Source: an uncultured Alphaproteobacteria bacterium
Lineage (GTDB): Bacteria; Pseudomonadota; Alphaproteobacteria; Rs-D84
Direction: 5' to 3'
Length of the DNA stretch: 64,000 bases
NCBI GenBank assembly: GCA_944392565.1
Contig: CALXWX010000003.1
Span: 2,008-66,007 of the forward strand
Numbering within the stretch: position 1 is the stretch's first letter; the number at the start of each line of letters is the position of its first letter. Under the pieces are notes generated by a model. That model saw only the letters and a program-made list of their open reading frames with translations, did no database searches and was not told the DNA's origin. Shown here piece by piece: positions 27,765-32,535 of this stretch. The translations under genes were made by a program, and so were the position numbers.

Positions 27765-30227
27765 TTATAATATTGGCGGGAAACAATCGCCCCCAGATTC
27801 TGGACAGCAATTAAACCCTTGTTCACCCATATCTGTATATATTTCACCCGCACAGCATCCATTTGCGTCCGGTGCGCCACCATCGGGACATGTAATAACA
27901 GTTTCCGTAACAGCGGCTTCTTCTTCGGTTGCGGTTTCAATAAATGGATTTTGAATTGCGCCACTGTCGTCATATGTCAGCCCCAGGATATCCTTGTTAT
28001 ACGCCTGTTGTTGTTGGGTTGTTTGGTTGCCGGCCGTCCCATATGTTTCCTGGAACACTTGTTGCTGATTTTGATAATAAGCATCCTGTTGGGCATTGCT
28101 TATCGCCTGGTAATTCAGTGATTGGCAGTACGCTAATACAGTTCTATAATCATAACCAGAATCTTGAATTATTTGGGCTGTCGCGTCTGGATCTATATCC
28201 CACATCCCATCAGCTGTATCGTTTGTACAATAGTCCACCAGATTAAACGAACGTGTCTGACCAACCCAAGAACCATCGTCATAATTCACATTTGGCTTTA
28301 TAGATGACCAGTTATTATATCGCGTATTTCTAGATGCGGCAGAAGCATATCCAGTTGCATCCCGAACCTTTTGAACAGAACATTCTTTGTCATTATCGCC
28401 ACATGTAATAACCAAATCCATTGGCGAATAAACTGTTATACGCGTACCGGCGGCAATTGAAAATGGTGGAATTGTATTATCCATTGCATCAACAATTAAT
28501 TTTTGTGCGACCTGGTTCCATGCGGTTATAACCTCTTGTTTTGCCAATTCTGATGAACGCACTGTACCACTTTGCACAACGGTATTATTGTCTAAATCAA
28601 TTTGATTAATAAATGTATCAGCAATTGGCGCAATCATATTAACCGCCGCTGGTACAATCGCGGTCAGCATTGGCATAACCAATTGTTCAACATAGTCTGT
28701 GCTGCCATGTCCCGGTACACCGGCACGCCCCTGGGAATCCCCAGAAAATGGCGCGTTTGTGCCATTAAAATTAAATTCAACACCACTGGGCAGTATAAAT
28801 TGATACCATTTTATTTCCATTCGCCCAATTGTTTGGTATGGCCCCGGCAAGTTTCCCGTAACATACCCCAACATCAATGTCCCTGTTGGAATTACAACAG
28901 TACGCCCATCGTCCGAATAAACATTGCGATCCACTGTTGCACGCACTGGCAATAATTGACCATTTTCATATATTTTTGGATCGGCACGCACTTCGGACAC
29001 AATGGTTGCCGGAATCGGCTTATATTGGCGCAATACAAATTTTCTGTCAAATGGATCCGATGAAAATACCGCCGAACCACTGGTTCCAATAATAACATCA
29101 CTTTTTGGCGCCTCGTTTAATTTAATTCGTCCCGAAAAATTTGTACCATTTTGTCCATTCGTTGATTGCGGTGCCGCCAGACTGCTAATTTCTTCTGTTG
29201 TTAATTGATATGCCTTGTTCACATTGCGTTCTGTTGCCGGGTTTGATAACTGGGGCAGTGTGCCATTTTGTATCGTTGTATACCCAATGTGTTCAGCGTC
29301 TGTTCCGATTTTTTGTGCCGGATTATTTATATCTGTGATAATGCCATTATCTGGATTATATGTCCCGGTCGGATTTTTACATTCTGTATCTGAGAACGGA
29401 TGATAATAATATGCACCGCCACTGGGACGAATCCAGCCACTTTGTACCCCCGATAAATTATATGCCGGCATGGCAAAGTCTGAACATGCCTCTGACGGTA
29501 CTGGGGCGGTTGTATTTTCTGAATAAACAGATTCATTGCCCACCGGCGCCTGGGTCGTTGTCGGCGTATCCAAGAAAGTAAAATCAGACGATGGGGCAAT
29601 TGCCTCTATATCCTGCTTGATTTCTGTTGCCACGGGTTCCGGTTCTGGTATTGGTTCCGGTTCTGCCGGTGTGGGTTCTGGTTCCGGTTCCGCGGTTGGT
29701 TCAATATCTGGGACAACAATTGGTTCTGGATCATTTGCCCCCAACACCATTATAACACGCGCCGTATTTTTCATTGCATCTGACGCATTTACATCGCGCC
29801 AGTCAATATATAATTCAGTTGTTTGCGCTGTCATCGCCGCAGTTGGATGAAATTCTGGATTAATACTGCATGTTGTGTTGGCGTCAATTTGACTCATTGC
29901 TGTACATGTTTGTTTTGATATGTCCAGTCCAACGATATCATCCGCAGTATATATTTTCATAATTTTTACAGGCGCACTGGCAGAAACCGTAATTTTTTCT
30001 GTTTCTGTATCGCCAACAATAACATTTATCCATTCAATTGTATCTGGCGACAGATTAACTGTGATTGGGGTATCTTCTGCATTTTCCAATGCCTTTTCTT
30101 CATCCCGGGTCAACAGCAATGTCAGTAATATTAATACAACAACAAACGCCGCCGCCAACAACAGCCATTGAATATGTTTTGGCGTATTTTTTCGCAGGTC
30201 TGAAAATTGTTGTTTTAATTTACTCAT
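27765..30227 (-). CDS. virB10: VirB10/TrbI-like T4SS inner-to-outer-membrane spanning protein with C-terminal Cys/Gln-rich extension
   Basis: Cytoplasmic N-terminus, TM (WLLLAAAFVVVLILLTLLL), Pro-rich linker (EPEPEPTPAEPEPIPEPEP), VirB10 beta-barrel region (VVIPTGTLMLGYVTGNLPGP...WYQFILPSGVEF...GDSQGRAGVPGHGSTDY), then ~200 extra residues ending ...CCPESGGDCFPPIL. Confidence 0.75.
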   Translation of the reverse strand: MSKLKQQFSDLRKNTPKHIQWLLLAAAFVVVLILLTLLLTRDEEKALENAEDTPITVNLSPDTIEWINVIVGDTETEKITVSASAPVKIMKIYTADDIVGLDISKQTCTAMSQIDANTTCSINPEFHPTAAMTAQTTELYIDWRDVNASDAMKNTARVIMVLGANDPEPIVVPDIEPTAEPEPEPTPAEPEPIPEPEPVATEIKQDIEAIAPSSDFTFLDTPTTTQAPVGNESVYSENTTAPVPSEACSDFAMPAYNLSGVQSGWIRPSGGAYYYHPFSDTECKNPTGTYNPDNGIITDINNPAQKIGTDAEHIGYTTIQNGTLPQLSNPATERNVNKAYQLTTEEISSLAAPQSTNGQNGTNFSGRIKLNEAPKSDVIIGTSGSAVFSSDPFDRKFVLRQYKPIPATIVSEVRADPKIYENGQLLPVRATVDRNVYSDDGRTVVIPTGTLMLGYVTGNLPGPYQTIGRMEIKWYQFILPSGVEFNFNGTNAPFSGDSQGRAGVPGHGSTDYVEQLVMPMLTAIVPAAVNMIAPIADTFINQIDLDNNTVVQSGTVRSSELAKQEVITAWNQVAQKLIVDAMDNTIPPFSIAAGTRITVYSPMDLVITCGDNDKECSVQKVRDATGYASAASRNTRYNNWSSIKPNVNYDDGSWVGQTRSFNLVDYCTNDTADGMWDIDPDATAQIIQDSGYDYRTVLAYCQSLNYQAISNAQQDAYYQNQQQVFQETYGTAGNQTTQQQQAYNKDILGLTYDDSGAIQNPFIETATEEEAAVTETVITCPDGGAPDANGCCAGEIYTDMGEQGFNCCPESGGDCFPPIL

Positions 30228-30247
30228 ATTTTATCCGCGATTTTTAT

Positions 30248-31780: not shown

Positions 31781-31812
31781 ACCAATCCCTTCCGTTTCGT
31801 ATTTAATTTTTT

Positions 31813-32535
31813 TTAATCGGCACCCGCCAAATATCCTGTATCCAATGGATCGCCGTTCCCAGATTCAACAGTATATTCAGAAACGCGAATGCCCAATGGA
31901 TTATTAAACCGTTCGTCCCATTTAATTGTGGCACTGTCTGCCATATCTAGTTTCAATTGTATTGTATACTCTTTTTTGTCCATCTGTCTATCACTATCTG
32001 AACAAAAATAGCGGAATGTTACAGCATAAGTATTATCAGTTCTGGGGGCAATTGCAATTGCACCATTATCAAATTCAACAGAACAAGAAAATTCGAAATC
32101 TGGCACACCACTCATCCATGCGTTCCACATATTTGTCTGGGTAAATGCATTATAAACATCCGGGGTTGACCAAGTATAAACAACGCCATTTTCATCGTTT
32201 GTCCATTTCGCACGCATTTCATGTGCGTTTGGCACGATTTCATTTCGTGCCTTGATATATTCGCGAATAAACGATCGCTTATAATTATCCATGTTTTCAT
32301 TAATTGGTGCCATTTCGCGCAAGACGACCTCTAAATCATTTTTTGGCGCAGACATTAAAAAGAACACCTGGGGACGATCCAGTGGATACATATTATACAA
32401 TGTTATAACCAACACGCCCAGCACAACCAGCATTGTGGCAAACACAATTGTCATCAATCTGGACAGTAAAACTGGCGGTTCTATGCGGTCTTGCAAGTGT
32501 TTCCTCCCCATCATATATATGTGGATTGTAGACAA
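31813..32535 (-). CDS. virB8: VirB8/TrbF-like (or DotI/IcmL-like) bitopic T4SS inner-membrane protein
   Basis: Short cytoplasmic N-terminus, one TM, periplasmic NTF2-like-size domain ending with the VirB8-type NPLG motif (RFNNPLGIRVSEYTVESG); 240 aa. Confidence 0.6.
   Translation of the reverse strand: MSTIHIYMMGRKHLQDRIEPPVLLSRLMTIVFATMLVVLGVLVITLYNMYPLDRPQVFFLMSAPKNDLEVVLREMAPINENMDNYKRSFIREYIKARNEIVPNAHEMRAKWTNDENGVVYTWSTPDVYNAFTQTNMWNAWMSGVPDFEFSCSVEFDNGAIAIAPRTDNTYAVTFRYFCSDSDRQMDKKEYTIQLKLDMADSATIKWDERFNNPLGIRVSEYTVESGNGDPLDTGYLAGAD

Follow-up and report, generated by a model that had tools for sequence, protein, structure and literature searches.

A conserved VirB8-VirB9-VirB10 operon with a predicted SPOR domain on VirB9 and a hypervariable cassette in VirB10 in gut Alphaproteobacteria of the order Rs-D84

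Introduction

Split loci for type IV secretion systems (T4SS) are the rule in the reduced genomes of Rickettsiales and in the ComB system of Helicobacter pylori. The rvh system of Rickettsiales disperses a P-type (VirB-like) T4SS over several chromosomal sites in Alphaproteobacteria with reduced genomes; it retains virB8-virB9-virB10-virB11-virD4 as one block and is known in all its parts. ComB, encoded by the comB2-4 and comB6-10 operons, is likewise a split system and contains a VirB8-VirB9-VirB10 block, while the core complexes of pKM101, R388 and Xanthomonas citri are composed of the lipoprotein VirB7 together with VirB9 and VirB10. Here we describe a locus of three genes encoding VirB8-, VirB9- and VirB10-like proteins in a 64,000-nucleotide stretch of DNA (the window) from an uncultured alphaproteobacterium of the order Rs-D84 (GenBank assembly GCA_944392565.1, contig CALXWX010000003.1, positions 2,008 to 66,007 of the forward strand). 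We describe this trio as a self-contained operon that is actively maintained and encodes the envelope-spanning core of a P-type T4SS, and consider whether the remainder of the apparatus lies elsewhere in the genome or has been discarded.

The locus resembles each of these systems in part. Its likeness to rvh lies in the reduced alphaproteobacterial genome, in the P-type class and, on the reading we prefer, in the splitting of the system over several sites; the duplicated VirB8 of rvh has a counterpart in sister lineages of the organism. The rvh block is not matched, however: a terminator-like hairpin, two small genes and yidC follow virB10, with neither VirB11 nor VirD4 adjacent, and to our knowledge no rvh VirB9 bears a SPOR domain. 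With ComB the locus shares the three-gene block, and a ComEC homologue is also encoded in this genome, but the trio lacks ComB6 and ComB7 upstream and its VirB10 misses the ComB10 equivalog cut-off. The pKM101, R388 and X. citri cores are matched in the fold of the VirB9 N-terminal domain and in the VirB10 TrbI region with its antenna helices; they differ in having a VirB7 lipoprotein, whereas this locus has no VirB7 gene and its VirB9 carries the predicted SPOR domain. Resemblance to the Cag T4SS is found in CagY, among the top Protein Data Bank (PDB) sequence matches of VirB10, and in CagX, among the fold matches of VirB9. The CagY-like features are themselves divided, a recombining variable region occurring in this VirB10 and giant repeat proteins in the VirB10 of sister lineages; unlike in Cag, the variable region follows the VirB10 domain rather than preceding it, the Enterousia protein contains no repeats, and there are no other cag genes.

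The lineage concerned, Candidatus Enterousia, belongs to the GTDB order Rs-D84 and has genomes of 0.75-1.0 Mb (PMC12306168). These genomes are without a tricarboxylic acid cycle, respiration, part of glycolysis and standard transporters, and the organisms are regarded as partner-dependent (PMC12306168). In the literature we found nothing on T4SS in RF32 or Rs-D84, nor on secretion systems of Enterousia.

Results

The trio encodes divergent VirB8, VirB9 and VirB10 proteins in one operon

The three genes lie on the minus strand in the order virB8 (31813..32535; a 240-residue open reading frame, ORF), virB9 (30248..31780; 510 residues) and virB10 (27765..30227; 820 residues), with gaps of 32 nt between virB8 and virB9 and 20 nt between virB9 and virB10. 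The identities proposed in the initial annotation were borne out by profile searches, in which all three proteins exceeded the curated Pfam cut-offs. VirB8, a predicted bitopic inner-membrane protein, scored 44.7 bits with PF04335 (cut-off 23.2) and covered 204 of the 213 profile positions; VirB9 scored 73.1 bits with CagX/VirB9 (PF03524; cut-off 34.2), and VirB10 scored 59.8 bits with TrbI/VirB10 (PF03743; cut-off 35). Scores with the NCBIfam equivalogs fell far below their cut-offs (VirB9 with TIGR02781, 48.9 against 217.7 bits; VirB10 with NF038091, 57.1 against 220), which marks the proteins as true but divergent members of these families. The ComB10 equivalog (NF038092) was also matched by VirB10, at 48.7 bits and E=5.6e-13 against a cut-off of 300, the generic VirB10 model scoring slightly higher.

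Gene callers applied to identical metagenome contigs place the start of virB8 at 32496, yielding a protein of 227 residues; the TTG codon at this position, seven bases 3' of a GGAGG ribosome-binding site, is likely to be the true start. The operon limits suggested earlier also stand. It begins at virB8, divergent from tRNA-Trp and secE, the tRNA-Trp gene being located 190 nt upstream on the opposite strand. It ends at virB10, where an intrinsic-terminator-like hairpin (27741..27758, minus strand; G+C-rich, with seven G-C pairs and a T-rich tail) occurs 6 nt past the stop codon and a second G+C-rich hairpin lies beyond it on the same strand (27644-27665); such hairpins with a T-run directly 3' of the virB10 stop support this boundary. 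The best sigma-70-like match upstream of virB8 (32631..32659, minus strand; TTCACA, 17 nt, TATTAT) is a consensus match only and falls within the 190-nt divergent region common to virB8 and tRNA-Trp; the promoter scan was uninformative, since matches were no more numerous than in shuffled sequence. An Rfam scan of the locus returned nothing except tRNA-Trp. Where only a 115-residue gene had been thought to follow the trio, two conserved small genes do so, encoding 115 and 139 residues (p115 and p139, described below).

VirB9 carries a predicted SPOR domain

VirB9 comprises a signal peptide, N- and C-terminal VirB9 domains (approximately residues 35-300), a variable linker rich in Gly, Pro and Met (approximately 300-405) and a C-terminal region corresponding to a SPOR (peptidoglycan-binding) domain (410-510; 30251..30553, minus strand). 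In an AlphaFold2 (AF2) model, predicted local distance difference test (pLDDT) values were 76-87 in the N-terminal domain and 73-85 in the SPOR region, both confident. The structures ranked first by Foldseek with this model were X. citri VirB9 (6gyb_B, E=6e-13), R388 TrwF, DotH, the F-plasmid core and CagX, and the N-terminal domain matched R388 TrwF (8rt6/7o3t) with TM-scores of 0.77-0.82. Comparison of the VirB9 profile with PDB sequences gave R388 TrwF as the closest, though weak, match.

The Pfam SPOR profile scored 19.4 bits in this VirB9, just short of the cut-off of 21, and SPOR (PF05036) is on record for many close homologues. The modelled region adopts the beta-alpha-beta-beta-alpha-beta fold and matches the SPOR domain of RlpA (6i09_A) with a target TM-score of 0.72 and a root-mean-square deviation of 3.2 (Foldseek); it is nearly invariant in the VirB9 alignment. 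From its modelled fold and the profile record of its homologues, the VirB9 C-terminus is predicted to be a SPOR domain. A profile search over 1.84 billion representative proteins retrieved 521 clusters at E<=0.001, and many clusters of VirB9 relatives contain proteins of 450-620 residues in which a linker joins a VirB9 core to a SPOR-like C-terminus. The SPOR-VirB9 fusion is ancestral to the whole clade and no peculiarity of the trio; nothing on VirB9-SPOR fusions was found in the literature. As a separate observation, a D-Ala-D-Ala carboxypeptidase (Peptidase_S11) encoded at 19985-21166 on the plus strand has a C-terminal SPOR domain, and is thus a second envelope protein of this type, encoded no more than 10 kb from virB9.

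VirB10 combines an invariant antenna region with a recombining cassette

The N-terminal part of VirB10 contains a conserved cytoplasmic tail of about 20 residues, a transmembrane helix (residues 21-39) and an immunoglobulin (Ig)-like domain of ASH/PapD type (55-170). The middle part has a linker rich in Pro and Glu (165-200), a conserved domain with two Cys (245-330) and the TrbI domain with antenna helices (399-602), and the protein closes with a C-terminal extension of about 210 residues (610-820) terminating in an invariant eight-Cys tail. The TrbI/VirB10 barrel and antenna projection (28422..29033, minus strand) would be the outer-membrane pore part. An AF2 model built from 35 Enterousia sequences had a mean pLDDT of 40.9, only the N-terminal Ig-like domain being usable; this domain is confident, and its fold matches ASH, PapD and MSP domains. 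Two helices of the model (510-542 and 559-584) agree with the antenna, which in solved systems makes up the outer-membrane pore, and the antenna region (510-600) is almost invariant across 77 species. The best PDB sequence matches, all weak, were H. pylori ComB10 (2bhv, E=5e-4) and CagY. Conservation of the cytoplasmic N-terminal tail suggests a partner on the cytoplasmic side.

Within the C-terminal extension, comparison with a strain of the same species (L002; loci compared are designated L and a number) revealed a hypervariable allelic cassette at residues 600-750 (27978..28430, minus strand). The two VirB10 proteins differ at 58 residues, and 56 of these differences fall in the cassette, where the synonymous divergence (dS) is 0.96 and the ratio of nonsynonymous to synonymous divergence (dN/dS) is 0.25. 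In the remainder of the gene dS is 0.06; between the same strains VirB9 is identical and flanking genes have dS below 0.07. The disparity within VirB10 indicates that old, divergent alleles have been exchanged by recombination between invariant flanks. Recombining cassettes of this kind typically occur in exposed domains facing a variable partner, for example host immunity, phage or other cells; by this token, and by the parallel with CagY, the cassette may be accessible at the cell surface.

The operon is maintained under purifying constraint at a fixed chromosomal position

Scanning one genome per species for VirB9 relatives yielded 268 genomes, and the conservation figures given here refer to the best 80 of these 268. 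The VirB9 proteins of these 80 are 72-99% identical over their full length. Their sources are metagenome-assembled genomes (MAGs) named Candidatus Enterousia, 'uncultured Alphaproteobacteria' or 'uncultured Rickettsiales', from the gut of humans, birds, horses, ruminants, mice and rabbits; one of them is a circular chromosome of 958,618 bp (OZ007020.1). Gene order is the same in essentially all 80 loci, with secE/nusG, the divergent series VirB8-VirB9-VirB10-p115-p139, and convergent yidC. In several species ligA, pyk, gyrA or an M13 peptidase gene takes the place of yidC downstream, and the five genes still remain together and adjoin secE.

It had been proposed that the locus might be a remnant, and a decaying relic of a conjugative or secretion system without current function could account for the incomplete gene set at a site in a lineage where genome reduction is ongoing (PMC12306168). 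The trio ORFs are nevertheless intact in all 80 species. With L005 as the reference, at an unsaturated dS of about 0.26-0.36 from the window, dN/dS was 0.048 for VirB8, 0.025 for VirB9 and 0.20 for VirB10, compared with 0.063 for yidC and 0.024 for kefB. Across the genus, sequence conservation is higher in VirB9 than in YidC, and long invariant stretches occur in the SPOR domain, the antenna region of VirB10 and the C-terminal domain of VirB9. Nor does the coding fraction of Rs-D84 genomes point to a build-up of pseudogenes (PMC12306168). Since dN/dS resembles that of housekeeping genes and synteny is kept in 80 species, the trio is no remnant, and we regard residual decay as a negligible prospect.

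Equally improbable is capture in the window of a mobile element, whether integrative conjugative element or plasmid. Genes for T4SS are often mobile, and the locus of one distant relative (L097) looks element-borne; but no integrase, relaxase or repeats flank the trio, and the proposal is contradicted by the fixed position of the operon between tRNA-Trp/secE/nusG and yidC in the 80 species and by the absence of any anomaly in G+C content or skew.

The trio is a contracted descendant of a complete T4SS

Four loci (L085, L088, L089 and L090) from sister gut Alphaproteobacteria, MAGs labelled 'Azospirillum sp.' or 'Alphaproteobacteria bacterium', are complete and have chromosomal contexts. In order, they encode VirB4 (810 residues), several large unknown proteins, a VirB5-like protein (PF07996), VirB8, a VirB7-like lipoprotein of 58-65 residues, another VirB8, VirB9-SPOR, a giant VirB10 (1400-2455 residues) and VirB11. 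They share with Enterousia a VirB9 having a variable linker and C-terminal SPOR region (35-47% identity over the full length), an orthologous VirB9-adjacent VirB8, and a VirB10 with the same transmembrane helix, Ig-like domain and TrbI domain. The closest relative of Enterousia VirB8 is this VirB9-adjacent paralogue, and the N-terminus of Enterousia VirB10 matches that of the sister giants. From these shared features, VirB9-SPOR, VirB8 orthology and the VirB10 N-terminus, we conclude that the trio is the contracted descendant of a complete T4SS.

VirB4, the VirB5-like protein, the large unknown proteins, the lipoprotein, the second VirB8, VirB11 and the repeat-laden giant VirB10 of the sister loci have no counterpart at the Enterousia locus, which instead has a short-tailed VirB8 and a VirB10 of 820 residues with a new C-terminal extension. 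The sister giants are, in their own right, packed with beta-flower, DUF3659 and RHS-type repeats in a CagY-like manner and are sometimes split into two ORFs, and no VirD4 gene adjoins the loci that encode them; we found no description in the literature of such a giant VirB10 architecture in gut Alphaproteobacteria, nor of these sister loci.

Other relatives show further arrangements. In the more distant L097 the order is canonical: two small genes (virB2/3) are followed by VirB4, VirB5, VirB6-like, VirB7-like and VirB8-VirB11 genes and, further on, VirD4; DnaB, VirD4 and UvrD nearby give it its element-borne appearance. L087, closer to Enterousia, has VirB9-VirB10 preceded by unrelated genes with no adjacent VirB8. 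A closer outgroup (L095/L096; GCA_016735385.1, 34.5% G+C) has VirB8-VirB9(SPOR)-VirB10 directly after rpsB-tsf, its VirB10 of 733 residues containing the same middle domain as that of Enterousia. In this outgroup the trio is followed (L095, 12258-13202) by a gene for a secreted protein of 135 residues; beyond this gene, some 1 kb of AT-rich DNA contains several near-identical repeated segments ('...CTCCGCGGGATAAC...').

No further T4SS gene accompanies the trio

All window ORFs of at least 150 residues were scanned against Pfam, and besides the trio these belonged to housekeeping or outer-membrane families, with no T4SS gene among them. The 10 kb past each end of the window likewise contained no T4SS-like gene: leuS, rpmH and genes of that sort lie beyond one end, those for an SLT_2 transglycosylase and glycosyltransferases beyond the other; a complete virB/virD4 locus immediately outside, which would have made the trio an ordinary fragment, is therefore not present there. 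Searches by tblastn with sister VirB11, the VirB4 C-terminus, VirB5-like and other T4SS-locus proteins matched the trio only. At the locus no small ORF for a VirB7-like lipoprotein occurs, and the window gave no match to the sister lipoprotein motifs (EPVG...SPCAC). The earlier observation that no ATPase, pilin or VirB6 gene lies nearby thus holds for the window and now covers about 84 kb and 80 related species. Its description as an orphan is accurate for the locus; for the genome it is not yet justified.

Where the trio might find its motor

We favour the interpretation that the trio still serves as the channel of a T4SS, with its inner-membrane and ATPase components, VirB4 at least, encoded at other sites in the genome of about 0.9 Mb, and assign it a probability of roughly 45%. 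It is preferred because split loci are normal in reduced Rickettsiales genomes and in H. pylori ComB, because the relatives L087 and L095 have fragmented loci, and because the VirB10 antenna and cytoplasmic tail are conserved. A further reason is that VirB4, alone among T4SS proteins, occurs in every T4SS known (PMC4027160). In the assembly envisaged, VirB10 would be anchored in the inner membrane by its single helix, with the C-terminal barrel and two-helix antenna reaching the outer membrane to form the pore; VirB9 would sheathe it as an outer ring tied to peptidoglycan by the SPOR domain, which may replace the anchoring role of the missing VirB7 lipoprotein, and VirB8 would add a periplasmic ring at the inner membrane.

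Several observations weigh against this interpretation. Genes for VirB4, VirB11, VirD4, VirB6 and pilins were found neither in the window, nor in the 20 kb beyond it, nor in about 1.5 Mb of flanking DNA from the 80 species, some of it rearranged. VirB11 directly follows VirB10 in every complete relative and in neither of the trio-only lineages, and the VirB7-like lipoprotein and second VirB8 copy are gone from the Enterousia locus. The one published survey of Rs-D84 genomes mentions no secretion system (PMC12306168). The cytoplasmic tail of VirB8 is truncated in both trio-only lineages: when VirB9-adjacent copies are compared, about 7-13 residues precede the transmembrane helix and constitute the entire tail in Enterousia, and 13-20 do so in L095, as opposed to 41-65 residues, including a conserved EKRYLWTARAFA motif, in complete loci. 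In the R388 structure the cytoplasmic tails of VirB8 reportedly contact VirB4.

The same observations favour a different reading, in which VirB4, VirB11, VirB6 and the pilins have disappeared altogether from both Enterousia and the L095 lineage, leaving VirB8, VirB9-SPOR and VirB10 as a core without a motor. In an organism that is deficient in most biosynthesis, such a core might act as a peptidoglycan-anchored, envelope-spanning channel or tether that touches a partner cell or takes up DNA or nutrients, passively or with energy from another source. Self-assembly without the ATPases is known for outer-membrane cores of T4SS, as in pKM101. The same three genes are isolated in two lineages with different neighbours, and the remodelling of VirB10, which lost giant repeats and gained a C-terminal extension with a recombining hypervariable cassette and an invariant Cys-rich tail, follows a pattern common in exposed domains that contact a partner. 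Rs-D84 is also described as lacking standard transporters and probably partner-dependent (PMC12306168). Opposed to this reading are the presence of VirB4 in all T4SS known (PMC4027160), no functional T4SS-derived core without this protein being known, the conservation of the VirB10 cytoplasmic tail, and the extent of the DNA inspected, which amounts to about 9% of one genome together with syntenic flanks. The argument from the VirB8 tail, for its part, is weakened because a second, short-tailed VirB8 is present within some complete loci (for example VirB8a of L089). We consider loss of the motor possible, and hold it tentatively. In its strongest form, that a whole lineage, Enterousia with at least one neighbour, has discarded every gene for a T4SS ATPase, pilin or inner-membrane channel and kept the core alone, with the VirB10 cassette engaging a partner or substrate, the proposal seems to us doubtful.

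A ComB-like role in DNA uptake is compatible with either a scattered or a motor-less system: the trio, as the outer portion of a T4SS, would import DNA to the periplasm, and ComEC would carry it across the inner membrane, as happens in H. pylori. VirB10 has ComB10 as its best sequence match among solved structures and matches the NCBIfam ComB10 model, as given above, but at a small fraction of the cut-off and slightly below the generic VirB10 model. The window encodes ComEC (15273-17213, minus strand; Pfam Competence, 177.5 bits), but ComEC is widespread and here lies 11 kb away on an unrelated stretch of chromosome. VirD4 does not adjoin the complete sister loci L088, L089 and L090, as in ComB, and the Joint Genome Institute name of one sister VirB9 is 'ComB9 competence protein'. 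Type IV pili have not been reported for Rs-D84, whose nucleotides must come from outside (PMC12306168). The trio nevertheless has no equivalents of comB6/comB7 upstream of virB8, since tRNA-Trp is situated 190 nt away, and ComB requires ComB4, whereas no comB2-4 equivalent occurs in the approximately 84 kb. We judge a ComB-like role unlikely. The ComEC homologue itself has 646 residues with Competence and DUF4131 domains, and no metallo-beta-lactamase domain was detected in it.

Two small genes accompany the trio

The gene for p115 (27126..27473, minus strand), a small protein without a family match, occurs immediately downstream of the trio in nearly all Enterousia species. In about 70 of the 80 loci its identity is 64-82%, a higher conservation than that of VirB8 or VirB10, and it stays with the trio where the downstream flank is rearranged; it is absent from L043, L046, L073 and L079 and from the outgroups. 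The protein is probably cytoplasmic, and because its gene lies behind the terminators it is probably expressed from a separate transcript. The adjacent p139 (26553..26972, minus strand), also without a family match, overlaps convergent yidC by 12 nt at its 3' end, and its N-terminal segment of about 110 residues is conserved, identity across loci being 38-72%. The pair is found behind the trio in about 70 of the 80 Enterousia species; neither protein had a match in Pfam, NCBIfam, PHROGs or PDB.

Other features of the window

The housekeeping genes of the window encode GyrA, a TolC/AcrB efflux pump, RmuC, Def, Fmt, TruA, ComEC, pyruvate kinase and the SPOR-bearing D,D-carboxypeptidase; RecR, KsgA, KefB, LspA, YidC, SecE, NusG, ribosomal proteins, RpoB, RpoC and PlsX; and a GuaB-like protein, FabH, a PLD-family protein and a radical-SAM protein. 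Envelope or secreted proteins are represented by an M13 peptidase, a PMP-repeat autotransporter and a Pom-type porin. The autotransporter (55934-58639, minus strand; 901 residues) and the porin, of Protochlamydia type (61904-63379, plus strand), are chlamydia-like outer-membrane proteins in an alphaproteobacterium. A secreted protein of 791 residues (51341-53716, plus strand) has a long low-complexity region rich in Ser, Thr, Ala and Arg and a Cys-rich C-terminal half, with no family assignment; in the complete MAG OZ007020.1 the inserted gene for a protein of similar composition, with 751 residues, separates p139 from yidC (L011, 15073-17328). The segment at 53790-54600 is gene-poor and contains a 75-bp tandem repeat (54270-54475; 2.7 copies, 98% match).

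Discussion

Were the trio to function without a motor, it would be the first T4SS core complex known to work alone, as a peptidoglycan-anchored envelope conduit or contact device. If a lineage has kept only the core under strong selection, this would show that the core is capable of a function in its own right, and Enterousia would offer a natural minimal system for its study. Even with motor genes elsewhere in the genome, the locus belongs to an undescribed clade of T4SS with a predicted VirB9-SPOR fusion and no VirB7 at the locus, with giant CagY-like VirB10 proteins in sister lineages and a recombining, hypervariable VirB10 cassette in Enterousia. For a widespread, uncultured gut bacterium with a genome of about 0.9 Mb, this apparatus is an obvious candidate for the interaction with a partner through which Enterousia may obtain metabolites and nucleotides.

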